Positions 10,907-24,791 of a stretch of 32,000 bases of DNA are shown here, piece after piece. The stretch comes from Burkholderiales bacterium (GTDB lineage: Bacteria > Pseudomonadota > Gammaproteobacteria > Burkholderiales > Burkholderiaceae_D), in contig CANGAW010000015.1 of NCBI GenBank assembly GCA_947451925.1, forward strand, positions 13,625 through 45,624. The letters run 5' to 3'. A program made the translations under genes and the position numbers. Positions within the stretch are counted from its first letter, which is position 1. The number at the start of each line of letters is the position of its first letter. A model generated the notes under the pieces. The model saw only the letters and a program-made list of their open reading frames with translations, was not told where the DNA came from and ran no database searches.

Positions 10907-10951
10907 TGGCTCCCTGACCTGGACTCGAACCAGGAACCTGCGGATTAACAG
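10907..10951 (-). repeat. att repeat A: 45-bp copy of the tRNA-Asn 3' half (anticodon loop to CCA), 43/45 identical to the expressed gene
   Basis: tggctccctgacctggactcgaaccaggaacctgcggattaacag, compared with 24716-24760. Homology stops exactly at ...ttaacag. Confidence 0.9.
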
Positions 10952-11021
10952 ACACTTTTCGACTCGCTGGTGCGCAAGCTTACACACATATCCACAGTTC
11001 TACAAATCGCATTCGCGATAG

Positions 11022-11219
11022 TTAAGAATTGCGCTTGGGCAGTCTCACAAGCGGTGCATTGCCACGCGCCCTCGCTGCAACGCCAAGGGCGTGGGCAAGC
11101 TCTCCGGCATCACCTTCCTCAATCACTACAGAAAGACAGGTGGCCATGTCGGTATCGTACTTAAGGTATTCGGCAGGATCAAAATTGGGCAACTCAGTTA
11201 CACGAATTTTTTCAGTCAT
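11022..11219 (-). pseudogene. HigA-family (addiction-module antidote) protein, C-terminally truncated or degenerate, without its toxin partner
   Basis: MTEKIRVTELPNFDPAEYLKYDTDMATCLSVVIEEGDAGELAHALGVAARARG... matches the N-terminal two-thirds of this antitoxin family. The HTH part is replaced by unrelated residues close to att repeat A. Only about 125 bp lie upstream before vapC. Confidence 0.5.
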
Positions 11220-11344
11220 AGTGAGCGGATAACTGGTCGACTCTAGCAGGTGTGCTTAGGCACAGCTCGGCCGGCATACTACAGGGCGACAGCAACTTTG
11301 CGGGTCGCATAGTTTGCTCGTCATATATGTGAGGGAGGAGATGA

Positions 11345-11755
11345 TCAGCGCGGTGGCTCGATCCAGTTTTCTGTCTGCAACGCGGGCACGCGCTCGAATT
11401 CCCTGAGGTTATTCGTCACCAGCACAAGTCCTTCACTGCGCGCATGGGCTGCAATGTGCAGGTCGTTGACTCCGATGGCCTGCCCTTGCGTTTCCAGCGC
11501 GGCACGGATGGATCCATAGTGCTGTGCGGCCCTGGATGTGTAGGGCAGCACTTCCAGGCGGCTGGTGAAGTCATCGATGACGCGCAGGTTGTCTGCCATC
11601 CGCGTGCTCTTTTCTGCACCGTGGTAAAGCTCCGCGAGCGTGATGCTGGAGATGGCCATCCTGTCGGTGTGCTGGTTGAAGGTCTTCAGTACTTCGGCTG
11701 GGCGGCGCTTGATCACGTAGATGACAATGTTCGTGTCGAGCAGGTAGCGGATCAT
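11345..11755 (-). CDS. vapC: PIN-domain toxin VapC
   Basis: MIRYLLDTNIVIYVIKRRP... is a PIN N-terminal acidic motif. 136 aa, with a 4-nt overlap with the upstream antitoxin gene. Confidence 0.85.
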   Translation of the reverse strand: MIRYLLDTNIVIYVIKRRPAEVLKTFNQHTDRMAISSITLAELYHGAEKSTRMADNLRVIDDFTSRLEVLPYTSRAAQHYGSIRAALETQGQAIGVNDLHIAAHARSEGLVLVTNNLREFERVPALQTENWIEPPR

Positions 11756-11988
11756 TCAAAGGATTCCCTCTCGGGTTGCTCCTGGCTGGCGCGCTCCGGC
11801 ATGAAATCGGCGCTGACTTGCGGACCGCCGAGAAAGAAGCTGTCCCAAGAACTGTCCAACGGGGAGATGATGCGCTCGTTGCCGATGGCTCGCACCTGCA
11901 CTCGCTTAACGTTTTCCGGTAAGCGCAGATCGGCAGGCAGGCGCACGGCTTGGGTGCGGTTGTTGATGAAGACGGTGCTGATGGTCAT
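11752..11988 (-). CDS. vapB: AbrB/SpoVT-type antitoxin VapB
   Basis: Start chosen at ATG 11988 (MTISTVFINNRTQAVRLPADLRLP...), with GGAGGT 5 nt upstream (reverse complement of 11993-11998). The longer track ORF, whose start is at 12033, is probably over-extended. Confidence 0.8.
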   Translation of the reverse strand: MTISTVFINNRTQAVRLPADLRLPENVKRVQVRAIGNERIISPLDSSWDSFFLGGPQVSADFMPERASQEQPERESFE

Positions 11989-12095
11989 CCTGACCTCCGG
12001 GTAATAAGTGTATATGGCACGAGTATATGGCACTTAAACGAAGGGTTCAAGTCCTTCATTCCTAGCAGTCTTGGCGATCTATTTGCGAATCAGGC

Positions 12096-12208
12096 TTACG
12101 TCGTCTTGCTAATACCCAGCTTCCTGCAGACCTCGTCAACACTGGTTCTCAGCTCAGCCTGCTTCAAGCCAAAGACGATTTGCTGCTCTGTGGATTTGTT
12201 TTCTTCAT
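12096..12208 (-). pseudogene. IS3-family (IS407-like) transposase OrfA N-terminal fragment, frameshifted
   Basis: Manual translation gives MKKT.. then, in the next frame, TEQQIVFGLKQAELRTSVDEVCRKLGISKTT*. This is the HTH start of IS3 OrfA proteins. No remainder of the IS is present. Confidence 0.6.
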
Positions 12209-12324
12209 CCTTGACCTCGTTTCACATCATGAAAATTGGCCAGAAAATTCTAATTTAAAACGGGACTGTTTTGTGGGGTAGGGTCAATGTTGATAAATTT
12301 TCTTTTTTATCAATATGTTCGAGC

Positions 12325-12422
12325 TATCGACACATTTTGAAAATTTGTCGATAAATTCGGAAAATATCGACAAGTTAGCTTGACAAGGTGATTTCATCGA
12401 CAAAAGGTATATTTATGTCGAA
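12325..12422. promoter_or_regulatory. array of five (A)TCGACA boxes upstream of fic (two of them inverted)
   Basis: TATCGACA at 12325-12332 and TGTCGATA at 12346-12353 form an inverted pair. ATCGACA occurs at 12366-12372 and 12396-12402, and TGTCGAA at 12416-12422. A TTGACA hexamer lies at 12380-12385. Confidence 0.4.
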
Positions 12423-12435
12423 AATTTAGTTAAAA

Positions 12436-13566
12436 ATGAACATTACCGCACCTAGCTGGCAGCCCGACCGTCCATACAACGAACTTCCTCCTTTGCCGCC
12501 GACCCAGGAGCTGGAGACCCGCGCTGTCCTGAAGCAGTGCATTACCGCCCGAGCAGCTCTGGCCGAATTGAAGCAGGCGGCGGGGCTGATTCCCAACAAG
12601 TCTATTTTGATCAGTCTCTTGCCGCTACTGGAGGCGCGTGCCAGTTCGGAAATCGAAAATATCGTCACCACAACGGACGAACTGTTTCGTCATGTCGGCA
12701 ACGAGGCACAGGCTAATCCCGCCACCAAGGAGGCCTTGCGTTATAGCCGTGCACTATTTGATGGATTTCAGGCGCTGAAACAAAGCCCGCTCAATACGCG
12801 TACGGCGGAGCAGGTGTGCACCACGATCAAGGGTGTGGAGATGTCGGTCCGGCGCACACCCGGTACAAAACTGCAAAACGAAGGTACAGGCAAGATCATC
12901 TATACCCCGCCCGAGGGTGAGGCGGTGCTGCGCGAACAGCTAGCCAACTGGGAACGCTACTTGCACAACGAAACGGAACTCGATCCTCTGATTCGCATGG
13001 CAGTCGGCCATTATCAGTTCGAGGCGATCCATCCGTTTACTGACGGCAATGGACGCACAGGGCGGATACTGAACAGCCTGTTCCTGATTGAAGAAGGTTT
13101 GCTAGGTTTGCCCATTCTGTATTTGAGCCGATATATCATCCAGAACAAAGCGGATTATTACCGTCTGCTGTTGCAGGTCACCCGCGAGCAGGATTGGGAG
13201 CCCTGGCTGCTTTACGTTATAAAGGGAGTGGAAAAAACGACGAGTTGGACGACTGCGAAGATTGCGGCAATCCGTGCCCTCTTCGATCATACATCGGAAC
13301 ATCTTCGTACCCAAGCGCCTAAGCTTTACAGCTATGAGTTAGTGAGCCTGTTGTTCGAGCTGCCGTATTGCCGCATCAGTAGCCTGACCGAAACGGGCAT
13401 TGCGAAACGCCAGACGGCTTCGTTGTATCTGAAGCAGTTAGTAGAAATTGGCGTACTCGCCGAAGTTGAGGCCGGCAAGGAAAAGCTCTTCGTCCATCCA
13501 AAGCTTATGCGGATGCTGACTCAGGACAGCAGTGAATTCACTCTCTATGGAAAATCCGTCGAATGA
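12436..13566 (+). CDS. fic: Fic-family protein, class II architecture (N-terminal inhibitory helix, Fic core, C-terminal wHTH-like part); SoFic-type
   Basis: Fic motif [12 protein letters not shown] is encoded at 13030-13065. The N-terminal SSEIEN fits the inhibitory (S/T)xxxE(G/N) motif. 376 aa. Confidence 0.85.
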
Positions 13567-14075
13567 ATGACCGGATCCGGTCAAGCAATCCAAGCATCAA
13601 TATCAGACCACCCGCAACTACACCAACCTGAAAGCTTCTTTTAAGAATCGAGCGCTTGGTTTGTATGACTTTTAGGATTTCACCGCCGAAATCTTTTTTC
13701 CAGAGGATGATTTTCCATTTAAGAGCGATCAAAGAACTTACAAATGCCAATGCGAAGAACGCAAAAGTAACCATCATTGAGTCGCTAGCGAGATTTCATG
13801 TTATTTCAGGAATATTAACAAGCATCCCTTTCGCATCTGTGCTTTGTAAACAGCGCAGTATTCGGCGTTGGGTTAAGACTGAATTTTAGACAGCTATTCC
13901 CTCTTCAGCGCCTTCAACTTCTCGTACAAGGAGTCACGAAACCTCTGCGCATCTTTGGCGTAGTGAAGCCTTCTATGTCAGTTTGGGCAAACGGCAACTG
14001 TGTTCGATGGCGTAGGTGGAACGTTCGTGTTCAGGTCGACAGAGAAGGGGGCATAGCAATTCCGAACCCCAAAGC

Positions 14076-14108
14076 AAAAAGCCCAACCGATGAAGGCTGG
14101 GCTTTTTG
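14076..14108 (-). terminator. hairpin with A/T runs adjacent to att repeat B
   Basis: AAAAAGCCCAACC-gatgaa-GGCTGGGCTTTTTG. Confidence 0.45.
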
Positions 14109-14119
14109 TTTATAACTAG

Positions 14120-14164
14120 TGGCTCCCCGACCTGGACTCGAACCAGGGACCTGCGGATTAACAG
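14120..14164 (-). repeat. att repeat B: 45-bp copy of the tRNA-Asn 3' half, 45/45 identical to 24716-24760
   Basis: tggctccccgacctggactcgaaccagggacctgcggattaacag. It diverges immediately after ...ttaacag. Confidence 0.9.
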
Positions 14165-14263
14165 CGTCGATGGCTGTTAAAAATAACTGTAAAATCAATG
14201 TATTGCGACGATATTTGTCGAGCGTGTAATTGTTCGTGTAATTGAATATCACCGAAATGCGTG

Positions 14264-14869
14264 CTAACTGGACTTGTCTTTCATCGATTTATTAAGTAAC
14301 TGAATTGTATGCTGGAAGTGTTCTGCGGCCGATGTGGTTGCGAGATCCTCAACTGAGAATGCTTTGAGTGAAAATCCATAGGTTTGCCCCTTTTTGCTCC
14401 TGAGTGAAGCGATCTCATATGCTCCTTGAGACGATTTGATTGACTTACGAATCCATATTGGTGCCCCTAGGATTATTTTGCTTCTTACAAAAACGATTCT
14501 GTCCTCTGTCGTATAAAGAATCGTTCCCTCGTTGTTAGGCAATGGATGCAGTTCGTTGCAGAGAAACGGGAACCATCCTTTCCCTTTTTCCGTTAGGATC
14601 CGCTCATCTACACGATTTATATTGTTAGGATCCGTACAAGGGTGTTTAGGCCAAGGAGGGCCCGGGTGATCAAAAAAAACCGTGCCACCATCAGGTGAGC
14701 GATAAAAAAATACATCGGCTTTACAGACGGGGCATTGTGCATTTGGATTGCTGTAGCTTTTTTCTTTGTTCCAATAATCACCGGCATATTTAATGCCTCC
14801 GGGATCATAAAAAACACCACCCCAACCACAATTGCAGTCTGAGGAATGCCCATATCCATTGCAAGTCAT
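14264..14869 (-). CDS. hypothetical protein with Cys/His-rich N-terminal (zinc-ribbon-like) region
   Basis: 201-aa ORF with N-terminus MTCNGYGHSSDCNCGWGG...CPVCKADVFFYRSPDGGTVFFDHPGPPWPKHPC. Same strand as, and 96 bp downstream of, the caspase-like gene. Confidence 0.6.
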   Translation of the reverse strand: MTCNGYGHSSDCNCGWGGVFYDPGGIKYAGDYWNKEKSYSNPNAQCPVCKADVFFYRSPDGGTVFFDHPGPPWPKHPCTDPNNINRVDERILTEKGKGWFPFLCNELHPLPNNEGTILYTTEDRIVFVRSKIILGAPIWIRKSIKSSQGAYEIASLRSKKGQTYGFSLKAFSVEDLATTSAAEHFQHTIQLLNKSMKDKSS

Positions 14870-14965
14870 GCCTATTGTCCTAGTACTATGAATAAGATCT
14901 ACTAAAAAAACTATTCATCGCTATTGGAATAAAAATCATATATTTAAGTGATTTATTGCAATAAA

Positions 14966-15604
14966 TTAGAGTCTGCCTTCTTTGGCTAATCGCCAGTAAT
15001 AACGACCTGCTGCTGTCAATTTACAGCTTTTTGACTGTATTGCTGCATCGTACATATGTTTTGCGTTATTAGGAACAACCAAATGAATCCTGTTGAGTTT
15101 TTGTAGCTTAGAAAATATTTCAATTTTTTCTTTAATGCAAAAATCCGATGTCTCTTCGAATTCTGGTGATAAGTCATAATCTTCCGCAGGCAATGGAAAT
15201 AAGTTAGGTAATTCTCGCAATAGCTTGATGCTAACTGGCGGCTCACATTTTCGTATTGCAATCACCTTTGAAACATGAGCCTTTAAGAGTGGCCTCTGAT
15301 CCCAGGCTCCAAGAGCGGCTTCAACTTTTGCGTATATGGATGGAATTGATATATTGCCAAGGATGTCTGCAGCGCCACCTTCTAGTGAATCAAGTACAAG
15401 AGATGTAAATAAACCACCGCCATCAACTTCGACGGACATCTGATTACCTCGGCTGGCAGTGATAATTGAAATGCCTTCGCGCAGTACGGCCATTTCATTG
15501 TTTAATTCAGGTGCATTACCTAGTAATCCTGAATGACAGCAATCTAGAAGTATTACAATTTCATCTGCTTTTGAGTCGTTGGCCATTTTAAGAACATCTG
15601 CCAT
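14966..15604 (-). CDS. caspase-like (peptidase C14 fold) protein lacking the N-terminal His-bearing half, plus an unknown C-terminal domain
   Basis: The DCCHSG catalytic-Cys motif is at residues 21-26 (15527-15544). It is followed by the typical ...ITASRGNQMSVE...GGGLFTSLVLDSLEGGAAD. An in-frame stop lies 4 codons upstream of the ATG, and GAGG lies 9 nt upstream. No GHG-type His segment occurs in any minus frame upstream. Confidence 0.6.
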   Translation of the reverse strand: MADVLKMANDSKADEIVILLDCCHSGLLGNAPELNNEMAVLREGISIITASRGNQMSVEVDGGGLFTSLVLDSLEGGAADILGNISIPSIYAKVEAALGAWDQRPLLKAHVSKVIAIRKCEPPVSIKLLRELPNLFPLPAEDYDLSPEFEETSDFCIKEKIEIFSKLQKLNRIHLVVPNNAKHMYDAAIQSKSCKLTAAGRYYWRLAKEGRL

Positions 15605-15630
15605 GGTTTGGCTGCCTCAGTCGAGCTCAG

Positions 15631-15918
15631 TTGCTGAAAAACCCATTAGGAAAAATTTTCGAAAAAATGGCAGTGATAGCTGGCGATAAAACTGAGCTTT
15701 GGGCTGTTTCAAAAATACCTGTGCGGCTTGATGGTATGACTCTAGAGCAATTAACCCCTGACGGTTGGATTCCAAGATTGGAATTCAGCATTGATGAAGA
15801 AGATGAGATTTGCTTTGCCGAATATGAGGATGCTGAATTCGAAGACATTATGCTAAACAGCTTTGAAAAGAGAATGGAGCTTTTTAATAATGCAAAGAAT
15901 TTAGCTACAGCTGCTTAA
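15631..15918 (+). CDS. small acidic hypothetical protein (start uncertain: TTG 15631 or ATG 15667)
   Basis: 95-aa ORF with an acidic core (EFSIDEEDEICFAEYEDAEFEDIM). Divergent from the caspase-like gene. Weak RBS. Confidence 0.4.
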   Translation: MLKNPLGKIFEKMAVIAGDKTELWAVSKIPVRLDGMTLEQLTPDGWIPRLEFSIDEEDEICFAEYEDAEFEDIMLNSFEKRMELFNNAKNLATAA

Positions 15919-15945
15919 TGCACTAATTTATTTTTGGAGAAAACA

Positions 15946-16266
15946 ATGAATAAAACCTTCATTAATGTTGCGAATGCGAGAACTACAGTACTCGTGGATT
16001 TTAAGATTGCACCGATAGATAGGCATTTCGAGGAATCGCTAACCCAGCATCTATCGGCTACGGTTGATGTTTCTGGAAATCCTGAGCAAGCTGTGAATGT
16101 GATGAATTCTATTACTCATTACAAAGGGGATATCGATGCAATTCAATATCAATTCGGTAGTACCGAATCCGCTGATCAAGAACTCGACTATGTGGCAGAA
16201 AATATTGAGCGAGAATTCTTGTATTGGTTGGTGAAGATGAATGGTTATGATGCAGTACGCCCTTGA
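15946..16266 (+). CDS. small hypothetical protein
   Basis: ATG at 15946 (MNKTFINVANAR...) is preceded by GGAGAAAACA. The track ORF start at 15934 is a TTG. Confidence 0.5.
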   Translation: MNKTFINVANARTTVLVDFKIAPIDRHFEESLTQHLSATVDVSGNPEQAVNVMNSITHYKGDIDAIQYQFGSTESADQELDYVAENIEREFLYWLVKMNGYDAVRP

Positions 16267-16302
16267 TAATTTGATTTTTTTTCGAATTTGATATTGGTAA
16301 AT

Positions 16303-16869
16303 TCATACCAGCTCAACGGCCCGGCGCAGCATGTCGTCATTGACGTCAATGTAGCGCTGGGTCACAGCAATTGATCTATGTCCTGCAAGGCTTGCTAGAA
16401 CACGAACACCGATACCTTTGCTGGCCAACGTGGTGATAAATGATCTTCGCATGCTGTGGCTACTGGCGCCTGCAACGCCTGCGCGTTTGAACAACCAATG
16501 AAAGTGTTGGGTTAGTACATTGGCAGTGAAGGCGCGTCGTCCCGCTGTGACGAATAGTGGTGTATCAGGTGTTAATGGCTGTCGCATGTCGATATAGTTC
16601 TGTAGTTCAGTTTGAAGTCGTTCAGGTAGGAATACTGTTCTCGCATGATGGCCTTTGGTCTGTGTAGCTGATAATCTTATTTCTGCTCTAACCTTTTGGT
16701 CAGCGTTCGCGATGTCTCTTATGCGAAGGCTGGCAATTTCTCCAACTCGCATGCCTGACCAATAACCCGTTAGCAGCATCAAGCGATTGCGAAGGGCGAA
16801 TTTGCGTGTTGCGATGAATGCGAGTACTTGTTCAAGTTCTGCGGGAGTGAGTGTTTTTGCTTGTGACAT
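16303..16869 (-). CDS. small (188 aa) catalytic-domain-only tyrosine recombinase, FimB/FimE-like in size and layout
   Basis: MRVGEIASLRIRDI (Arg I region), SSHSMRRSFITTLA (HxxR), LAGHRSIAVTQRYIDV (His and the Tyr nucleophile). There is no N-terminal SAM-like arm or core-binding domain. Confidence 0.8.
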   Translation of the reverse strand: MSQAKTLTPAELEQVLAFIATRKFALRNRLMLLTGYWSGMRVGEIASLRIRDIANADQKVRAEIRLSATQTKGHHARTVFLPERLQTELQNYIDMRQPLTPDTPLFVTAGRRAFTANVLTQHFHWLFKRAGVAGASSHSMRRSFITTLASKGIGVRVLASLAGHRSIAVTQRYIDVNDDMLRRAVELV

Positions 16870-16935
16870 TGTGATTTCCTTAAGTAAATAAAACTGCTGC
16901 TTATAGTGTGTTTTCTTTTGCTTAAAAGGTCGACC

Positions 16936-16961
16936 AAAACCCGTGAAGTTGGCGGGTTTTT
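16936..16961. terminator. hairpin flanked by A- and T-runs between the recombinase gene and the ORF-less region
   Basis: AAAACCCG-tgaagttgg-CGGGTTTTT. Confidence 0.4.
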
Positions 16962-16993
16962 ATTTGAGCTTTTATTTCAATGACTTATGCAAT

Positions 16994-17023
16994 CACCAAA
17001 GAAAATGTATATTTCCTTTGGTG
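16994..17023. promoter_or_regulatory. lox/FRT-like palindrome (13-4-13, or 11-8-11 with spacer ATGTATAT), candidate core site for the adjacent recombinase
   Basis: CACCAAAGAAAAT-gtat-ATTTCCTTTGGTG has one arm mismatch and lies 125 bp upstream of the recombinase start codon. Confidence 0.45.
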
Positions 17024-17484
17024 TTTTTAACTGTATATTTTGTAGTCTAAATCCCACAGAATTCAGCGCAAATTTATTGCGAATTTCGTAGGCCGCTAAC
17101 AAAAGCTCAAAGCAGCCCTACAAGCTGTTTGTGCAGTTCCTGCTACCCAATACTCCAGCACTGCTTTAGCTGCTTGTGTGCTTATTTATAGCCCGTGCGT
17201 TCGAGGATGTACGCTTATTGAGGGCGTACTGGGGCATTTGTGGGAAAGCTGAAATCAATCTCTGCTTGATTTTGTTTAGCTCTGTGCTGGTTATGAGAGA
17301 AGCAATGGGAGCGAACCTGCAGTTCGCTAATGATTTCGCAGATCACGTTCGCTTTCGCTCACTTATCTGCTCATCATTGGTTTTTTATATTTTTAGATTT
17401 TTAAATCTCAGAATCATGAAAATCATATAAAGATTAGATTTAATGATTAAGGGTTTATGTATCCTTCGATAGATTCAAGACACA

Positions 17485-17515
17485 CTGAGCCTTAAGCAAC
17501 AGGCTCAGTTTTTTT
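17485..17515 (+). terminator. rho-independent terminator in ORF-less DNA
   Basis: CTGAGCC-ttaagcaaca-GGCTCAG followed by TTTTTTT. No credible CDS lies upstream on the + strand. Confidence 0.6.
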
Positions 17516-18047
17516 GTGGACGATCATTCGATGAGTTCGTAGCCACAGCACTTCGGCACAACCTGAATTCAGGTAAGGGCGGTTTCGCGGTCTCCTTTTA
17601 TGTGCAGCTGATGAAACGCAACCATTGTGAAAGCCGAAGTGCCGACTGTCACTGGTTTGCAAGTTGCCGTGTTAAGCAGGGCTTGCTCGTGACGCACAGG
17701 CGTGTGCCTGCCGTCTTTGTGCTGAATGATTGCTCCTTGCGTTAATCGGCCTGCAACAGCCAACAGCATCCCTGTGGGTTAGTAACGCTAAGTCTCTGCT
17801 ACCTCTCAGAATTTCCGTCCCTGCGAACATGTTTGACCAGGTTTAGGGCGCCAGTTAGCTGAGGGCGCTGCTCATTATCGGTAGTGATGTGTGCCGCAGG
17901 CTTTTCCTCTGGCTTGCGGCTACGTTTATTTATGCATCACCAAAGATCTCGTGAATTTTCCCGACATTTTCATAGGCATTTTCCCGGTCGACCTTTGGCA
18001 TAAATGGTAATAAATTAGTAACTCCAATAACCTAAACAGGAGGAGTT

Positions 18048-18488
18048 ATGTCCGTACTTAATTCGCTAAAACTGGTGGAAAGCCGCAAAAACACTAGACT
18101 TTCGCCTATCGTCCAGCGTCGTTATAAATTAGTTAATAAGTTGCATGAGCAGCTGGAGCTGTGCGAAGCCAGAAAAGCAGGACAGACCTACGCACCTAAG
18201 AAAATCAAGACCATCAAAAATCCAGCAACGGGAGAAAGCACAACCGTAGAAGCTGTGAAGCGGGTCAAAGAGTGGTTCTGGACCAACGATGCTGGCAAAA
18301 TCAACCTTGCTGTGAAATACGGTAGTCAAGTGCTGAGCTTTGCCAAGGGCAAGAACGCAATTGAAGTTGCAACAGCAGATGATTTGATTGCAGCACTTAA
18401 GGCGCTCAAGGACGCAGTTATTGCAGGTGAGCTTGATGCTCAGATTGAAGCCGTAAGTGGAGCGCTGAAAGCGGGGTTCGTTAAATAG
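18048..18488 (+). CDS. hypothetical protein (146 aa), basic N-terminal half
   Basis: Strong RBS AGGAGG 5 nt before the ATG. Clean ORF, no family recognised. Confidence 0.65.
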   Translation: MSVLNSLKLVESRKNTRLSPIVQRRYKLVNKLHEQLELCEARKAGQTYAPKKIKTIKNPATGESTTVEAVKRVKEWFWTNDAGKINLAVKYGSQVLSFAKGKNAIEVATADDLIAALKALKDAVIAGELDAQIEAVSGALKAGFVK

Positions 18489-18508
18489 CCCGCTGAATTT
18501 GAGAAATA

Positions 18509-18554
18509 AAGCAGTTCGCGCGATCTTCGTTATGCATCATCGCGCTTGCTGCTT
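18509..18554 (-). terminator. imperfect hairpin plus T-rich tail downstream of the 262-aa acidic protein gene
   Basis: AAGCAGttcGCGCGAT-14 nt-ATCGCGCttgCTGCTT. On the minus strand it is followed by TTTATTTCTC. Confidence 0.45.
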
Positions 18555-18558
18555 GCTA

Positions 18559-19347
18559 CTATTCGAGTTTCAATTCAAATGGAAGAGGCCGTTCATAGAG
18601 ACTGATATAGCGTCGCAGGTTTTCCAAGATTTTTTCTTTGATCAGTGGAGCATCATCAGTATTTTCCTCAAGATTTTCGCTTTCATCAAGATCTTCCTCA
18701 TTCTCCTCATCTGCGTTCATGCTGAGGTTTTTGAAATTTCCTTCTGTTATTTCTTTCAGTTCATCGCAAATACAATTTGCAGCGTAAGGAAAGCTATCGT
18801 TTGAATCGAAAAATTTCTCTCCATCTGGCGATAGACACCAATGATACATTTCGAAAAGCTTCTCTTGTTGATCAGAAAATTTCAGTAGATGCGCGATTAT
18901 CGCTTGCTCTGGCTCGATTCCTTTGAAGTCAAAATTTTCTAAGCTAAGTTTAATCAGCCAGCTTCCGAGTAATTTTTCAGGAGTATTCTTTTCAAATAAA
19001 AATCTGATAATTTTTTCAAATAAATATTCAGGGTCTTCATATTCGTCAAATGTGAAACATAGATTGCTCAAGACGTCATATATGGGTTTTTGATCATTTA
19101 TGTGATGCATCCCGCAGAGCTGTAACTCATCGTCGAAAACAAAATCTCCGATATACAATCGTTGCTCGACTCCATCTACACTCAAGTGCACAATCAGAAA
19201 TGCCTCATCACGATTAAAAACCAGTCCCGCTCTATACCAGATGCGTTTCATTTCCGAAATTACTTCATCATAGCTTGACGCACTGAAGTAAGCCGACTGG
19301 CCGGATCCTTTATATTGAAAAGATGCCTCCACTTCAAACTGAATCAT
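18559..19347 (-). CDS. acidic hypothetical protein with poly-acidic C-terminal segment
   Basis: Start preferred at ATG 19347 (MIQFEVE...) because GGAG lies 5 nt upstream. The track start at 19359 lacks an RBS. C-terminal NADEENEEDLDESENLEENTDD. Confidence 0.6.
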   Translation of the reverse strand: MIQFEVEASFQYKGSGQSAYFSASSYDEVISEMKRIWYRAGLVFNRDEAFLIVHLSVDGVEQRLYIGDFVFDDELQLCGMHHINDQKPIYDVLSNLCFTFDEYEDPEYLFEKIIRFLFEKNTPEKLLGSWLIKLSLENFDFKGIEPEQAIIAHLLKFSDQQEKLFEMYHWCLSPDGEKFFDSNDSFPYAANCICDELKEITEGNFKNLSMNADEENEEDLDESENLEENTDDAPLIKEKILENLRRYISLYERPLPFELKLE

Positions 19348-19591
19348 TCGAGCTCCCATGTAAAGTTTGTGTAATTGAAATAGAAATCATGTGCAGTTTC
19401 CAGCTTTCCATTCAAGCGTATCAGAACATTCTCAAGGGCGCCGCTGGCGCCCGGTGGCCGGTGCTGGAGGCAATGGCGGCAGTCAGCGGAGCGACAAGCC
19501 GAAGATGACAGCCGTCCGTGACGGCGTGCTTTGGAATTGAGGTGGCCCGACTCTGAAAGCAGTCCGTGACTGCGAGCTTTGGAAGAGGCAG

Positions 19592-19831
19592 GTGTGCGAA
19601 GCACTGATCGATCTGGCGGGGCCGCTGGCCGATGAGCCAGATCGACTTGGATTAAATACTTGTATGAAAATCCATGAGATCACTACAAAACCCAAAGCAC
19701 CGTTAACCCCGGATCAAGCTAAAATCGCGGCATTAAAAGCACAAGCCAAGCGTAGCCAAGATGCAGTAAAGGCAGAGCGGGCACGACAGAAGTTACAGGC
19801 TGGGCAACAAGCTTTGAATCTCATCAAATGA
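19592..19831 (+). CDS. small hypothetical protein (79 aa from GTG 19592, or 55 aa from ATG 19666)
   Basis: AGAGG lies 3 nt before the GTG. The C-terminal half is a Lys/Ala/Gln-rich helix-like stretch. The 5' part overlaps the GC-rich structured islet, so the coding status of that part is uncertain. Confidence 0.3.
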   Translation: MCEALIDLAGPLADEPDRLGLNTCMKIHEITTKPKAPLTPDQAKIAALKAQAKRSQDAVKAERARQKLQAGQQALNLIK

Positions 19832-19848
19832 ATAAAAAATTATTGCTG

Positions 19849-20481
19849 CTATTTTGTAATAGTAAAATTTTTATTTGATATTTTTGCTTTGATTATTACT
19901 ATTTTTGGGTCGATTGTTTTAGCTAAATCTTGAATCTTTTGAGTTGGTATTTCACAGCGGCAACCAAGAATTATCTCTACAGGTCGAATTTCATCGGAAA
20001 ATTCTTGAAAATAATTTCCATTCTCTTTCGTTGATATATCTAATTCGCAAAAAACTCTCCACTCATCCTCATATTTCCAGTTCTTAAATTTTCGTCTAAT
20101 TATTTGATCGAGTGTTTGTTGATTAGGCTTTGCAATTCCTGTAATTTTATCTTTTGGTATGCTAATTAGGTCATCTGAATACTTTACTTTGCAAGGAAGA
20201 TGATTAGTTATCTCAAAACCTAAACAAATTCCTAGATGCTTGTCGCCGTAATGCCCCCATAAGACAGGATTAGACCATCCTGAAGAAAAACAGATTAAGC
20301 CTTTCGTCTCATCGATTTGGTTTTTGAAATTTACTAATGCAGTATGGTCTCTAGGATCAGTTCTATTAACTGCCAGTAATTCGAAAGGATCGTTGAGCTC
20401 GGAAAATCGAGAAATTTTCAATCTTCTCAAAGACAAGTTGGAAATTGCAAAGTGAGCTGACGTGAAATAATAAAGTTTCAT
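19849..20481 (-). CDS. DUF2971-family protein
   Basis: N-terminal MKLYYFTSAHFAISNLSLRRLKISRFSELNDPFE, then ...ICFSSGWSNPVLWGHYGDKHLGICLGF, match my recollection of DUF2971 conserved blocks. The ATG lies 1 nt after the upstream stop (TAAgATG). Confidence 0.65.
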   Translation of the reverse strand: MKLYYFTSAHFAISNLSLRRLKISRFSELNDPFELLAVNRTDPRDHTALVNFKNQIDETKGLICFSSGWSNPVLWGHYGDKHLGICLGFEITNHLPCKVKYSDDLISIPKDKITGIAKPNQQTLDQIIRRKFKNWKYEDEWRVFCELDISTKENGNYFQEFSDEIRPVEIILGCRCEIPTQKIQDLAKTIDPKIVIIKAKISNKNFTITK

Positions 20482-20482
20482 C

Positions 20483-20980
20483 TTAAGCTCTCAGGGCTGC
20501 CAGCGTGACCAACCCATGTAGTTCTTCTATTGCTGACTCAGATCCAATCAACTCAACTTCAATATTGCGACGCCAGGTTTTTATTCTTATCTTGGCTGAT
20601 TTTTGCGTGTTCTTGGCTTGATACTCAACGTCGTACTGTGGAATGGTTTCACCATCAGGTATGGCAGATCTTATGGTCGTATGAAATTCTCGAGCAATAT
20701 CGCCAGATAACTCCCATGCAGATTCAGCAGCTGCCACAGCCAGCTTGTACTGTTTTTGAATGATCGCATTAGTGACTGAGGTTGATAGTCCTTTGGCCTC
20801 AGGTAGTTCATCAGATAAAACCAAGCCTTTTTTAATATCAGCTAATAGCTTTTTATAAAAGTTGATTTTGCCGTGCGCATCCCAACAAAGATCAAATGCG
20901 ATGTTGGCGTAATTTTCAAAGAAGTCTTTGAGTTCATCCTGCGTGGCAGATATTCCGGTCATGGCTCGAGGTCTAGTCAT
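20483..20980 (-). CDS. hypothetical protein (165 aa; alternative start ATG 20962), upstream partner of the DUF2971 gene
   Basis: Clean ORF that begins 17 nt after the integrase stop. Translationally coupled to the DUF2971 gene. No family recognised. Confidence 0.6.
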   Translation of the reverse strand: MTRPRAMTGISATQDELKDFFENYANIAFDLCWDAHGKINFYKKLLADIKKGLVLSDELPEAKGLSTSVTNAIIQKQYKLAVAAAESAWELSGDIAREFHTTIRSAIPDGETIPQYDVEYQAKNTQKSAKIRIKTWRRNIEVELIGSESAIEELHGLVTLAALRA

Positions 20981-20996
20981 TTTCTATGCCTGTCAA

Positions 20997-22388
20997 TTAG
21001 TTGGAATTACTGCCGCGAGTGCGGCGCAGGGCTTCTTGCAACTCACTTGTTGCCGTTGGGTTTTGCATTACCAATGCAAGCGATAGACCGGTGCTGAGTT
21101 CTGCAAAGTGCATGAGGTTGTCATTGGGACTCTGATTCATGATGCGAGTAATTGCAGCTTCATCAGTGCCAGCTTCGCCGCGCCCTGAGAACTTGTCGGC
21201 GTTAAGCAGGGGATTCAAATGATTGTAATGCTTGGCAATCATTGTGGCGCTGGTGCGAACCTGTTGTTGGATTTGCTCAGCAGTTAAGCCTTTGGTGACT
21301 AACTGAGTGATTGCGTAGTGTCTAAGGCTATAAAGAGTACGCTCTTCGCCAGTAATAGTGCAGACCAATAGTTCAGAGTCTTCTAGCAGTTGTTTGAACT
21401 GCTTGGTAAATGTCTCAGGCTGTTTGCCATCACTCATTCTGAATAAGCGCAGCGGATGTTTTTCTTTTAGTACTTCATTCAGAGTTTTGTCTTTGAACTC
21501 AGGAGCTAACTGTCTTAGCTTTTCTAAGTAAAGCCAGCAACTGCGATGAAGTACTGCGCCTTGTTTGGTGTTCTTCTTGGCAGTCTTGCCGTGTTGGATA
21601 TTGGCATACAACACAGGCTCACCTGCGATCTCATGCACTTCAATGTGCCGCCATTCCAATAACTCCATCTCTGTACCTGTACGCATTCCTGTAGTGGCCG
21701 CAAACGGCACATATACAGCCAACAATTCGCGAATCATGCGTGTGCGACCTGCGCGACCACTCTCAACCCAGCTGGGCAAGTAGGCCAGTAGCCGTTCCAT
21801 TTCACTGTGGCTGAAGTCCGGTCGTCTGCCTGCGGCGGGTCCTGTATTTTTGAGAGTGGGGCGTTGACTTGAATTCATGTAGCCGCGCTCAACAGCTAGA
21901 TCAAACACAAGATTCAATGCGGCGTTGTGGTTGGCTTGGGCGCTGTGGCTCAGCTCACGACCAACTTTCTGTCGTCGCCACTCGCAGAAGGCGTTGAAGA
22001 CCTCTTGGGTGATCCCATTGATGTTGTAACTGCCAAAGTAGGGCACAAGATAGCCACGAAGTGCAGACAGATAATCGTTGTTGCTACCGCGTCGGGTTTT
22101 GTCTGCATCTACTTTGGCTTGCAGATCTGCTTGGACTATCTCAGCCACTGCTTTGAAACGTTTGGAGATAACTGCCTGACCATTCTTGGCTAATATGCGA
22201 GCTTCCATCCAGAGTTCTTCCGCAATGGCCTTAGCATCAGCGAGTTCGGTCTTCTTGGTGGCCTTACGAATCCATTTGCCCAGTTGATCCACTTTGTAGT
22301 GCGCTTGCCAGTACTGACTATCGGCTCGGCGAACGAGTCGAATTGCATGTTCTTTAACTACTATGGTTTCGTCGGATTTATGGCGCAC
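20997..22388 (-). CDS. int: tyrosine-type integrase of the tRNA-Asn island (GTG start)
   Basis: 463-aa ORF. Arg I region ATTGMRTGTEMELLEWRHI, then LYSLRHYAITQLV and the Tyr nucleophile region MIAKHYNHL. Oriented like the tRNA. Confidence 0.85.
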   Translation of the reverse strand: MRHKSDETIVVKEHAIRLVRRADSQYWQAHYKVDQLGKWIRKATKKTELADAKAIAEELWMEARILAKNGQAVISKRFKAVAEIVQADLQAKVDADKTRRGSNNDYLSALRGYLVPYFGSYNINGITQEVFNAFCEWRRQKVGRELSHSAQANHNAALNLVFDLAVERGYMNSSQRPTLKNTGPAAGRRPDFSHSEMERLLAYLPSWVESGRAGRTRMIRELLAVYVPFAATTGMRTGTEMELLEWRHIEVHEIAGEPVLYANIQHGKTAKKNTKQGAVLHRSCWLYLEKLRQLAPEFKDKTLNEVLKEKHPLRLFRMSDGKQPETFTKQFKQLLEDSELLVCTITGEERTLYSLRHYAITQLVTKGLTAEQIQQQVRTSATMIAKHYNHLNPLLNADKFSGRGEAGTDEAAITRIMNQSPNDNLMHFAELSTGLSLALVMQNPTATSELQEALRRTRGSNSN

Positions 22389-22457
22389 TAACTAATTTTA
22401 TAAAAAAGTTTTTGTTTGGTCGACCGAATTCTTTGTTCGGGTGTTGGTATAAATTTA

Positions 22458-24329
22458 TCAATCTGGATAATTTGTAATTCGCTTGCAAATGTTATTCATT
22501 AAGCTGGTTATTTTTTCTGACGTATACGAATCAAGATGATCAATTTTTAATTCGTTAGAATTAACTTTTTGCATAAACTTAAGCGCCTGTATAGCTTTGG
22601 ATGCACCGTGTGATTTTGCCCAAGCTGAGTTGGCATTGTTTCCGCTTATTAAGAGAGATTCATCTTCAAGAATAAATTTTTTATAATCTCTATTGGAAAA
22701 TACATCTTCAATTCCGTGGCATTCATTTATCTTGTACATTCTTTGCGAAGCCCAATCGTGATCATCGGCAAACATGTCCCGTTTTATTGAGTTAAATACT
22801 TTGCGCGCACTTGGTTCATCGTCGAGAATAATTATGAATTGCAGCCCCCATCCTAAAAATAGATTCGCGAAATTTTGTACATTAGACGTACCAGTAGCTG
22901 GAAGGTAATTTATTTCAACTGTTTGATTGGTTAATTTATGAAATGCAGTTAAAAAATAAAAACAGCTTAATTCCTCAAGGATGACATTATTTGTACTTTT
23001 AATTGTCGTTTGTCTAGAAAAAGAGGCTCCCATACTTGCGAGAATTGGACTTAGAGTATCTGAAGAGGCCGCGCCCAAGGCATGGGCGCCAATAACCTTT
23101 GTAGGATTTCCTTCTTCTTTTTCATCTCTTTCGACTGCTAATATTCTTTGAAAATGTGTTTCACTAATTAAATTTGGGCTATGAGTAGAATAAATTACGC
23201 CTATTTCATTTTTTATACTTTCAAGAAGCTTCAAGACATCTCTCTGAGCTTTTTCATGCAAATTTGCTCCAGGTTCATCAAGCAAAAATATAAGATTTTT
23301 TTTCTGAATTTGCGAAGAGAAAAGCTGAAGAAAGAAAGAAATAAACCACCGAGTTCCTCTACTTCGTTGTTGCGGATACAGTGGATCGGAACTGTCTGAA
23401 ATCAGAAATTGCAGATATGGCTTCCCTGTTTTTTCATTGCCGGTAGGGTAGTGATGGATAGAGCATTGAATCTCAAGCTTACTATTTGTGCCTATTGTCT
23501 GGCTCCAGAATTTCCGGAATTCTTCAGTTAATTTTTTATTCGCAGATTTAAGAGTCGCCTCTCTAGCTCTCGGATCACTTTTTACTAGATCACTCAAATC
23601 TATTTTTGAAATAACAAGAAAATTCTCGGCAGCATTTTTTCCATCGGAGATGGCAAGCTGATTTTCGTCAGTTATGTCAACAGAGTTGGGTAGTAATCCA
23701 AATTTTTCTTCAAAGAGGACAAAGGTGGGGGCGAGTTTAAACAACTTGTCGCGGATTTTGTCCGATATTTCTTCTACGTTCTGATTTATAGCTTCTGGTG
23801 TTGAGTTGGTTAATTCAGGTGATGGTGATGTATGTTCTTGGCTATCAGCTGAAATTTCTGATATTTCTTTGCTGTTAGCGTTTTTTTGGGCTAATTCAAT
23901 ATTTTCCCTAATTTTTACTATACTTTCAGCTATATTGATATTTTCTATCTCCCAATGAGAGTCATAAATTTTGGGATCTGTTGAATTTTTGTGAAAGCTA
24001 AAATGCCAATTTAATTTATAGTTAATATTTTTAAATTGCTCCAGTAACTGGTTTTTAGTATGACTATCTTCAATCTGTGTTAAAGCCGAACTTAATTCGA
24101 TTTCAGTTAATTCGGTTGTAATGAAGATTTCTGGTAAAGGGTGCCCATGTCTAAGATCGTTATCTGCGATTGATTGGTTTGAGAAAGTTTTTGCCAGTGC
24201 TTCCAAAATTGCAGTTTTGCCGGATTCATTTTGACCAACGATAGCTGTAATGCCGTCCATTGAAAAATAAATTGCTCCTGTGTCAAGGATCGAGCGAAAA
24301 TTTTTTATTTGGAAGCTCAGTGGTCTCAT
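22458..24329 (-). CDS. OLD-family ATP-dependent nuclease-like protein (ABC-type ATPase N-domain + Toprim-like C-domain), class-1 (stand-alone) layout
   Basis: Walker A GQNESGKT. A long helical insertion precedes the signature/Walker B region (RGTRWFISFFL...LIFLLDEPGANLHEKAQ...YSTHSP). C-terminal Toprim-like blocks NVILEELSCFYFL, LPATGTSN and FIIILDDEP. ATG 24329 with a GGAG RBS is preferred over the TTG at 24365. Confidence 0.7.
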   Translation of the reverse strand: MRPLSFQIKNFRSILDTGAIYFSMDGITAIVGQNESGKTAILEALAKTFSNQSIADNDLRHGHPLPEIFITTELTEIELSSALTQIEDSHTKNQLLEQFKNINYKLNWHFSFHKNSTDPKIYDSHWEIENINIAESIVKIRENIELAQKNANSKEISEISADSQEHTSPSPELTNSTPEAINQNVEEISDKIRDKLFKLAPTFVLFEEKFGLLPNSVDITDENQLAISDGKNAAENFLVISKIDLSDLVKSDPRAREATLKSANKKLTEEFRKFWSQTIGTNSKLEIQCSIHHYPTGNEKTGKPYLQFLISDSSDPLYPQQRSRGTRWFISFFLQLFSSQIQKKNLIFLLDEPGANLHEKAQRDVLKLLESIKNEIGVIYSTHSPNLISETHFQRILAVERDEKEEGNPTKVIGAHALGAASSDTLSPILASMGASFSRQTTIKSTNNVILEELSCFYFLTAFHKLTNQTVEINYLPATGTSNVQNFANLFLGWGLQFIIILDDEPSARKVFNSIKRDMFADDHDWASQRMYKINECHGIEDVFSNRDYKKFILEDESLLISGNNANSAWAKSHGASKAIQALKFMQKVNSNELKIDHLDSYTSEKITSLMNNICKRITNYPD

Positions 24330-24398
24330 ATGCTCCACATCCTTTTTTATGTAGACCTTAAGCAATTTACTTAGGGTTGGATTGTTTCATTTAAATAT

Positions 24399-24584
24399 CT
24401 ACTTGATTTGGTGGAATTTTCTTAGATTTATATCATTTGTGCCAATAGCAGGTGCAGCCAAATCAGTTTGGATGCCTACTACATTGACATTGTAGTGTGC
24501 TTGCCAGTACTGACTGTCGGCTCGGCGAACGAGTCGAATCGCATGTTCTTTAACTACTATGGTTTCATCAGATTTCTGGCGCAT
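24399..24584 (-). pseudogene. integrase N-terminal remnant (first about 31 codons homologous to int, then unrelated)
   Basis: MRQKSDETIVVKEHAIRLVRRADSQYWQAHY... compares with MRHKSDETIVVKEHAIRLVRRADSQYWQAHY... of the 463-aa integrase. The DNA repeat 24490-24584 versus 22294-22388 has 7 mismatches in 95 by my alignment. Confidence 0.8.
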
Positions 24585-24660
24585 TCGCCAAGTATATGAT
24601 ACTTAAGGTTTTTAATCAACCTTGAACAAAACGTGCAATAACCGTGTAATTGAAAATCCA

Positions 24661-24696
24661 ACAAAAAAGCACTTGGCTTTTAGGGCGCAAGTGCTT
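24661..24696 (-). terminator. rho-independent terminator of the expressed tRNA-Asn (island-side DNA)
   Basis: Minus strand reads AAGCACTTG-cgccctaaaagc-CAAGTGCTT followed by TTTTTTGT. Confidence 0.6.
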
Positions 24697-24715
24697 GATT
24701 TTCTTACAGATTCTT

Positions 24716-24791
24716 TGGCTCCCCGACCTGGACTCGAACCAGGGACCTGCGGATTAACAGTCCGTCGCTCTACCAACTGAGCTATCAGGGA
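24716..24791 (-). tRNA. tRNA-Asn (anticodon GUU), 76 nt with encoded CCA
   Basis: Sense strand: TCCCTGATAGCTCAGTTGGTAGAGCGACGGACTGTTAATCCGCAGGTCCCTGGTTCGAGTCCAGGTCGGGGAGCCA. Cloverleaf folded by hand: 7-bp acceptor stem (with U5-G68), anticodon loop CUGUUAA, T-arm CCTGG/TTCGAGT/CCAGG. Very similar to E. coli tRNA-Asn. Confidence 0.95.

Follow-up and report, generated by a model that had tools for sequence, protein, structure and literature searches.

A tRNA-Asn island of freshwater Burkholderiales with an integrase-linked protein, orf165, and a candidate stand-alone defence gene of the DUF2971 family

Introduction

Directionality factors or excisionases of tyrosine integrases, such as lambda Xis, P2 Cox, P4 Vis and the AlpA-type proteins, are classically small and basic and contain a helix-turn-helix or winged helix. 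Among systems built on ADP-ribosylation, DarTG consists of the DNA ADP-ribosyltransferase DarT and the macrodomain antitoxin DarG. A phage defence candidate is listed in PADLOC as PDC-S31, in whose name the 'S' is taken here to stand for a single gene. As for the location of such genes, Rousset et al. reportedly described in 2022 that the defence hotspots of P2-like phages and P4-like satellites are cargo slots between conserved core genes.

Proteins of the family DUF2971 have been described as ADP-ribosyltransferase-like and placed in the HYE clade, close to DarT and AbiGi, with poor conservation of the motif I histidine; in a survey centred on Legionella, about 18% of the DUF2971 proteins were predicted effectors (PMC12522546). 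Moreover, the single DUF2971 gene Aristaios from a Lactococcus plasmid has been validated as an abortive-infection system; its product has an ADP-ribosyltransferase fold and affects phage transcription (PMC11381338, PMC13064643). The initial annotation of the locus studied here had regarded DUF2971 as a domain of no established function, which these descriptions of an ADP-ribosyltransferase-like family (PMC12522546) and of a single-gene abortive-infection system (PMC11381338) supersede. For PDC-S31 itself, neither a published phenotype nor a mechanism was found in the literature searched. In the present locus, a DUF2971 gene follows a small gene, orf165, and an integrase. With a probability of about 0.7, the region is read as the integration module of a 10.5-kb tRNA-Asn island of freshwater Burkholderiales plus one cargo gene, orf165 being the partner of the integrase and DUF2971 a stand-alone defence cargo.

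Results

The locus was analysed in a window of 32,000 nt (the whole stretch of DNA, to which all positions refer), and its three genes all lie on the minus strand:

20997-22388, minus strand: int (int463), tyrosine integrase of 463 aa, island core
20483-20980, minus strand: orf165, integrase-linked core protein of 165 aa, probable accessory factor
19849-20481, minus strand: DUF2971 / PDC-S31 gene, 210 aa, cargo in a variable slot

The co-oriented and compact arrangement noted in the initial annotation was recovered. The integrase stop codon TAA occupies 20999-20997 and the ATG of orf165 lies at 20980, leaving 16 nt between them (the start comes 17 nt after the last stop base), and the orf165 stop codon TAA (20485-20483) is followed by a single G and then by the DUF2971 ATG at 20481 (TAAgATG, a 1-nt gap). 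A consensus scan of the minus strand from int to the DUF2971 stop gave no terminator-like site and no usable promoter-like site, so that an int-orf165-DUF2971 operon is plausible, although the counts of such sites were at or below those of shuffled controls and the scan is taken as no more than weak support for a single operon. The orf165 family was found to be small, with 55 clusters of about 160-170 aa each in an exhaustive profile search of 1.84 billion representatives, and the close family comprised 47 clusters at at least 61% identity. The DUF2971 subfamily is large, with 722 matches, typically of 209-221 aa. Given these numbers of homologs, both orf165 and the DUF2971 gene are real genes and not chance open reading frames.

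The three genes belong to an island at a tRNA-Asn gene, whose borders and further components were the following:

24716..24791, minus strand: tRNA-Asn (GTT), found by ARAGORN and Rfam tRNA
24716-24760: attL core, the 3' 45 nt of tRNA-Asn (repeat family D1; alignment)
14120..14164, no strand assigned: attR, repeating the tRNA-Asn 3' end over 45/45 nt (repeat family D1; alignment)
24399..24584, minus strand: int', truncated copy of the integrase 5' end (ORF list), 131 nt from the tRNA, which is the canonical distance
22458..24365, minus strand: OLD/GajA-like ABC-type ATPase of 635 aa with 36% G+C, second defence-type cargo gene
19592..19831, plus strand: orf79, convergent backbone gene at the far edge of the cargo slot (homologs, DNA alignment)
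18048..18488, plus strand: DUF6641 backbone gene (Pfam PF20346 at 2.9e-12)
17738..17873, minus strand: Polynucleobacter-1 RNA motif, backbone element (Rfam RF01718, 84 bits)
16303..16869, minus strand: rec188, small tyrosine recombinase with the catalytic domain only, backbone gene

Since the repeat at 14120-14164 is exact over 45 nt, int463 was assigned to the 10.5-kb island, which spans about 14165-24715 and has a G+C content of 42%, compared with 52-54% in the host flanks. The description of the DNA as AT-rich therefore stands, with 33% G+C in the DUF2971 gene and 43% in orf165. A further copy of the tRNA-Asn 3' 45 nt was found at 10907-10951, where 43 of the 45 positions match. The truncated int' was recognised from a 125-nt direct repeat (22277-22401 and 24473-24597, 85% identity), and in the identical element L008 it appeared as a tblastn match to int residues 1-37. 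The ATPase gene sits between the tRNA and int, and its product matched Pfam AAA_15 at 9.6e-23 as well as the AriA, Old and GajA models of PADLOC, the similarity to GajA being C-terminal; the initial annotation had correctly placed an OLD-family gene on the far side of the integrase. Beyond the 10.5-kb island, a second island of 3.2 kb was observed, which lacks an integrase and contains Fic and VapBC-like genes.

The backbone recurred in related elements. Homologs of orf79 with 72-80% identity were found in L001, L007, L015, L026, L028-L031 and L048, the DUF6641 gene was kept at 65-97% identity, the Polynucleobacter-1 RNA held an unchanged position in L001, L006, L028, L031 and L048, and rec188, which matched PHROG 216 (integrase) at 6e-40 and Xer-like families in NCBIfam, was kept in L001, L005, L006, L026 and L028. 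Moreover, the window element itself was present in other samples (L008-L010) with 99.8-100% protein identity. The related loci originated from uncultured Burkholderiales genomes and lake metagenomes. As for the variable-region genes of sister elements, including a Rep-like protein of 187 aa, no relatives were detected within the window.

The integrase matched PHROG 1 (integrase) at 5e-26 and, weakly, Pfam Phage_integrase. Homologs of int463 occurred in all related loci with 39-95% identity, and the protein has an unusual but conserved C-terminal tail of about 70 aa (residues 395-463). By tblastn, int463 had no match in the GenBank phage collection and orf165 none in the plasmid collection. Likewise, nothing was found in IMG/VR with orf165 or int463 as single queries; the integrase alignment recovered one locus there, L068.

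Gene context was examined or recomputed for more than 30 orf165 loci. Wherever upstream DNA was present, a full-length orf165 was directly preceded, in the same orientation, by an int463 homolog of 461-463 aa, with gaps of 15-60 nt between the two genes across loci. This was the case for 22 out of 22 full-length orf165 loci of a metagenome scan, and likewise for L001/L002, L005, L006, L007, L016, L017 and the contexts P0253 and P0240. The pairing survives down to 46% identity of the integrase and about 20% identity of orf165, it is present at two target sites (tRNA-Asn and tRNA-Cys), and across loci the identity of one protein correlates with that of the other (r = 0.95, n = 25). The loci of these counts were mostly picked via orf165, and the only one that tests the link in the direction from integrase to orf165 is L068, found via the integrase alone, in which an orf165-family gene follows the integrase with an hhalign probability of 99.96%.

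Two loci, L015 and L049, were remnants with a 5'-truncated orf165 and no integrase upstream, the former being a Burkholderiales genome with the same uvrB-aminotransferase-tRNA-Asn site as the window. Partial orf165 matches were also found in L050-L054, where tblastn detected no integrase match. In tRNA-Cys elements, the int-orf165 pair occurred beside ordinary-looking chromosomal genes, and an attR copy of the tRNA was not found in the DNA examined of this clade, in which the pair by itself may constitute a minimal element. Taken together, orf165 is part of the integration module and is inherited with the integrase as a fixed adjacent pair.

The gene behind orf165 behaved differently. Apart from the window element (L008-L010), a DUF2971 gene followed orf165 in L007 only, an element 73% identical to the window in orf165, 80% in DUF2971 and 85% in int that has the identical 1-nt junction. 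The initial annotation had proposed from this junction that orf165 and DUF2971 act together, and it had named a lack of co-occurrence with DUF2971 elsewhere as one of the refuting results, which is essentially what was observed. In the metagenome scan, a DUF2971 homolog was present in 0 out of 29 orf165 loci, and none of the remaining orf165 contexts contained one except L007. The constant partner of orf165 is the integrase, rather than DUF2971.

In a DNA alignment of five tRNA-Asn elements, the conserved sequence extends to the orf165 stop and resumes at the orf79 3' end, with an unalignable slot in between. The slot contained DUF2971 in the window, DUF2971 and a 170-aa gene in L007, nothing recognisable in L001, a gene for an unknown protein of 126 aa in L028/L029, a ChrR-type cupin in L030, and a UvrD-like helicase (PADLOC Helicase, 8e-34) with a 209-aa protein in L026. 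The integrase-proximal position is thus a cargo hotspot of varying content, as had been suspected. In the tRNA-Cys elements, where no orf79 homolog was detected, the genes downstream of orf165 were a SRAP peptidase (L038), helix-turn-helix proteins or ordinary-looking chromosomal genes. Furthermore, the backbone genes have 43-49% G+C (49% in both int and orf79), while the DUF2971 gene and the OLD-like gene are far lower. Both the variability of the slot and the low G+C content indicate that DUF2971 is hotspot cargo and orf165 backbone; the DUF2971 gene is a separate cargo in a variable slot that extends from the orf165 stop to orf79. Consequently, the tight junction reflects expression of the cargo and not a functional partnership, the cargo presumably having been fused to the end of the int-orf165 operon through the 1-nt gap.

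Regarding the DUF2971 protein, the domain assignment of the initial annotation was upheld by Pfam PF11185 (29.7 bits, the gathering score being 22; E-value 1.7e-6, residues 74-143). Four PDC-S31 models of PADLOC matched the protein with a best E-value of 8e-28; one of them, PDLC04991, aligned over almost the entire protein, residues 1-204 corresponding to positions 1-195 of the 208 in the model. The DUF2971 gene is accordingly a further member of the known candidate family PDC-S31, and the PADLOC check envisaged for the island returned this family for DUF2971 and the above-mentioned models for the 635-aa ATPase. Among 38 subfamily sequences including that of the window, Y137, E138 and E140 (Y137-E138-x-E140) were invariant; LNDPFEL (29-35), W75, H77, R20 and R25 were invariant in the subfamily as well, and G76 and Y78 nearly so. 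As the window protein keeps the conserved residues, including the catalytic ExE glutamates (E138, E140) that are motif III of the HYE clade, it looks enzymatically intact from its sequence. A profile of the DUF2971 subfamily had no match at all among PDB sequences.

The contexts of DUF2971 homologs varied. Eleven loci, of which nine lie outside this element family, had no neighbour in common, and orf165 was absent from all nine. One homolog is preceded by type I restriction-modification genes and a pair of AAA_15/21 ATPases, and another is a lone moron of the P2-like Pseudomonas phage vB_Pae_BR319a, in which genes for tail morphogenesis and the baseplate flank it. In addition, DUF2971 homologs were found on 312 plasmids, Lactococcus not being among the ten most frequent genera of the matches listed. 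The PDC-S31 matches, the presence of Aristaios in the same family (PMC11381338) and the homolog beside restriction-modification genes agree with the earlier view of a defence-type cargo. With the fold assignment taken from the literature, the DUF2971 gene can be regarded as a stand-alone candidate abortive-infection effector, presumably ADP-ribosyltransferase-like. The protein would act alone as an enzyme of the PDC-S31/Aristaios type; with NAD+ as substrate it would modify a nucleic acid or a protein in response to phage infection, and this modification would block phage transcription or replication.

For orf165, the earlier statement that it has no recognisable domain was borne out, as nothing reached the threshold in Pfam, PADLOC, PHROGs or NCBIfam. 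A first AF2 run, whose shallow alignment comprised 30 sequences of at least 61% identity, was discarded for its pLDDT of 57, while a deeper alignment including the distant clade gave a pLDDT of 87 and a pTM of 0.77. The predicted fold starts with a long helical hairpin (residues 8-50 and 67-87), followed by an antiparallel sheet of four strands (99-145) and a helix at the C-terminus (148-164). The fold check that had been planned with AF2 and Foldseek therefore succeeded as to a confident model but not as to a match: no structure of PDB or BFVD was found at E ≤0.001, the top TM-scores being about 0.3, and a profile search against PDB sequences returned nothing meaningful. The protein has a pI of 5.95, with a family median of 6.3 (near-neutral to acidic). 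In the deep alignment F21 and W89 were invariant and P114 nearly so, and no catalytic-looking motif was seen; neither was a helix-turn-helix present in the model or matched as a family in Pfam.

On account of the near-neutral pI, the unmatched fold and the lack of a catalytic-looking motif, orf165 is unlike a classical excisionase: it is adjacent to the integrase, but it is not a small basic DNA-binding protein. As its linkage to the integrase is unbroken while the neighbours turn over, an accessory role in recombination is the best available explanation. Judged by synteny, orf165 probably serves the integrase as an accessory subunit without enzymatic activity of its own, and it might control the directionality or the assembly of the recombination complex.

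Discussion

The reading proposed in the initial annotation, in which orf165 (as sensor, regulator or antitoxin) and DUF2971 (as effector) make up a dedicated defence or toxin-antitoxin module of two genes, has the TAAgATG junction in its favour, as well as the conservation of this junction in L007 at 73% identity of orf165 and 80% of DUF2971 and the fact that ADP-ribosyltransferase toxins like DarT need an antitoxin (PMC12522546). Against these points, none of the 29 scan loci pairs orf165 with DUF2971, nor does any further orf165 context except L007; conversely, nine contexts have a DUF2971 homolog but no orf165. In addition, orf165 contains no macrodomain or other known antitoxin domain, and both Aristaios (PMC11381338) and PDC-S31 are single-gene systems. 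A dedicated module is thus largely refuted by the missing co-occurrence, and we consider it highly improbable. A functional link restricted to particular lineages may exist, the 1-nt junction being conserved in both lineages that carry DUF2971. As to the nature of the cargo itself, DUF2971 could have a role other than anti-phage defence, either as a secreted or host-directed effector, in line with the share of about 18% predicted effectors in the Legionella-centred survey (PMC12522546) and with the lack of a phenotype for the PDC-S31 subfamily in the literature searched, or as a selfish addiction toxin stabilising the island. Such a role is improbable, as the protein is short, of cytosolic type and without a partner gene, an OLD-like gene is located on the same island, homologs occupy a defence island and a phage moron position, and anti-phage activity has been validated for one member of the family (PMC11381338).

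A third possibility concerns orf165, which could be an independent cargo (an anti-defence, exclusion or stability gene) that became fixed beside the integrase and has no role in recombination. The features of a classical directionality factor are indeed absent, no DNA-binding domain was detected, and orf165 evolves faster than the integrase, with 40% identity where the integrase keeps 68%. However, adjacency, orientation and short gap have been kept over a very deep divergence and at two tRNA sites while the rest turns over, and the pair persists in tRNA-Cys elements beside ordinary-looking chromosomal genes, which makes independent cargo rather unlikely. The preferred reading, orf165 as partner of the integrase and DUF2971 as separate defence cargo, can be extended by a more speculative one: orf165 would represent a new structural class among the accessory proteins of integrases, obligately paired with the integrases of 461-463 aa in tRNA islands of freshwater Burkholderiales and in at least one predicted prophage, perhaps docking on the integrase tail of about 70 aa and setting the direction or timing of recombination, and the slot behind it would be dedicated to capturing cargo genes, which would be turned on along with the integrase. 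We hold this extension to be possible but would sooner wager against it than for it.

Several consequences follow for annotation. Where the upstream gene belongs to the backbone of an element, a stop-start junction cannot be taken to indicate that two genes work as a pair, and DUF2971 genes of the PDC-S31/Aristaios type should be annotated as stand-alone defence candidates. Moreover, a cargo hotspot bounded by the stop codons of orf165 and orf79 has been mapped in an uncharacterised island family of uncultured freshwater Burkholderiales, and mining it could yield more defence genes. The integrase-orf165 pair is an uncharacterised and modestly interesting side result. If orf165 is truly a new kind of recombination accessory factor, it would be an addition to the short list of directionality factors; as a small, integrase-linked family with a confident but unmatched predicted fold, it is a question of specialist more than broad appeal.

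Compared with the systems described, the DUF2971 gene is closest to PDC-S31, with which it shares four model matches, the single-gene layout and the lack of a conserved neighbour; PDC-S31 is a candidate only, however, and the window gene appears fused to an integrase operon without an obvious promoter of its own. With Aristaios it has Pfam PF11185 in common, as well as the action as a single gene (proposed here for the window protein) and carriage on a mobile element, the likeness being drawn via the Pfam domain only, since Aristaios has 316 aa and comes from Firmicutes, whereas the window protein has 210 aa and comes from Burkholderiales. DarTG resembles the locus in that DUF2971 is reported to be DarT-like in sequence and of the HYE clade (PMC12522546) and is tightly linked to an upstream gene, but orf165 lacks a macrodomain and is no consistent companion of DUF2971. 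Like the excisionases, orf165 is small, non-catalytic and fixed beside a tyrosine integrase of a tRNA-integrating element, with which it is apparently co-transcribed; in contrast to them, it has 165 aa, a pI of 5.95, no helix-turn-helix or winged helix, and a fold unmatched in PDB and BFVD. Finally, the host element of the slot is a Burkholderiales tRNA island, neither a phage nor a known satellite and without a match among GenBank phages, and part of the cargo of the window family is not defence-like (cupin, SRAP), but in common with the P2/P4 hotspots the slot lies between core genes, orf165 and orf79, and holds varied cargo, some of it defence-like.

Backbone components of the tRNA-Asn island family

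The Polynucleobacter-1 RNA motif was found in the window (Rfam RF01718, 84 bits), where it is divergent from the backbone DUF6641 gene with a spacing of 174 nt. Five sister elements (L001, L006, L028, L031 and L048) presented the motif at a backbone position identical to that of the window and, therefore, the tRNA-Asn island family includes this orphan RNA as a component.

Polynucleobacter-1 motif and small recombinase
Window 17738-17873, - strand: Polynucleobacter-1 motif
L001 10704-10839: Polynucleobacter-1 motif
L006 3974-4117: Polynucleobacter-1 motif
L028 3706-3841: Polynucleobacter-1 motif
L031 4158-4293: Polynucleobacter-1 motif
L048 3174-3284: Polynucleobacter-1 motif
Window 16303-16869, - strand: small tyrosine recombinase (188 aa), catalytic domain only, Xer/integron-integrase-like

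In PMC2864571, Polynucleobacter-1 is listed among RNAs from Burkholderiales and fresh water, with a likely cis-regulatory role. No convincing ORF was found in the ~0.9 kb separating the motif from the small recombinase gene in the window. L001, L005, L006, L026 and L028 share the 188-aa recombinase as a conserved part of their island backbone; this element family thus has two recombinases.

Tandem arrangement and decay of the islands

The 45-nt 3′ end of tRNA-Asn was present in three copies in the window (10907-10951, 14120-14164 and 24716-24760), which indicates that the islands at this tRNA are arranged in tandem. The second island (about 10952-14119) had no integrase and carried the following genes:

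Window 11345-12033: VapBC-like PIN pair
Window 12436-13566: Fic-domain gene

At the same uvrB-aminotransferase-tRNA-Asn site, the Burkholderiales genome locus L015 (5260-6651) is a decayed island copy, in which orf165, the gene directly behind the integrase gene (int), was reduced to its last 75 codons beside a second tRNA-like fragment, with a homolog of the backbone gene orf79 further along. A clade of loci (L035-L042; L036 4375-6498) showed about 40% identity in orf165 and integration adjoining tRNA-Cys; in several of them, ordinary-looking chromosomal genes (TctC, IclR) appeared directly behind int-orf165, and no attR copy was found within the examined locus sequence of this clade. Two readings fit these loci: elements of very small size, or islands that have decayed and left only the int-orf165 pair intact.

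Cargo genes and their acquisition

Both sides of the OLD-like gene were flanked by a 125-nt direct repeat with 85% identity (window 22277-22401 and 24473-24597), comprising 13 nt upstream of the integrase gene and its first 112 nt. Reading from the tRNA, a truncated integrase ORF (int′) was followed by the OLD-like gene and then by the intact int.

Window 24399-24584, - strand: int′, 131 nt from the tRNA (the canonical distance)

The OLD-like cargo looks to have been acquired via recombination of two related elements, rather than by simple insertion. Two further gene pairs were considered:

Window 14264-15604, - strand: gene for a caspase-like protein (212 aa) and gene for a Cys/His-rich unknown protein (201 aa)
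L026 2305-4949, slot behind orf165: UvrD-like helicase gene (672 aa) and overlapping unknown gene (209 aa)

The caspase-like protein matched NCBIfam 'caspase, EACC1-associated type' at 1.5e-11 and PHROG 18397 at 8e-57, the latter covering the C-terminal two thirds of the profile only, and the Cys/His-rich protein was encoded next after it; the two genes may constitute an additional defence-type cargo pair at the far island end. In the sister element L026, whose int was 95% identical to that of the window, the helicase matched PADLOC 'Helicase' at 8e-34; its gene and the 209-aa gene occupy the hotspot that holds DUF2971 in the window and are a candidate defence system of two genes. Finally, a DUF2971 gene with 38% identity was found in the P2-like Pseudomonas phage vB_Pae_BR319a (NC_055793.1 10870-11634), as a single insert with virion-morphogenesis and baseplate-assembly genes on either side, an unusual moron position within the tail gene cluster.
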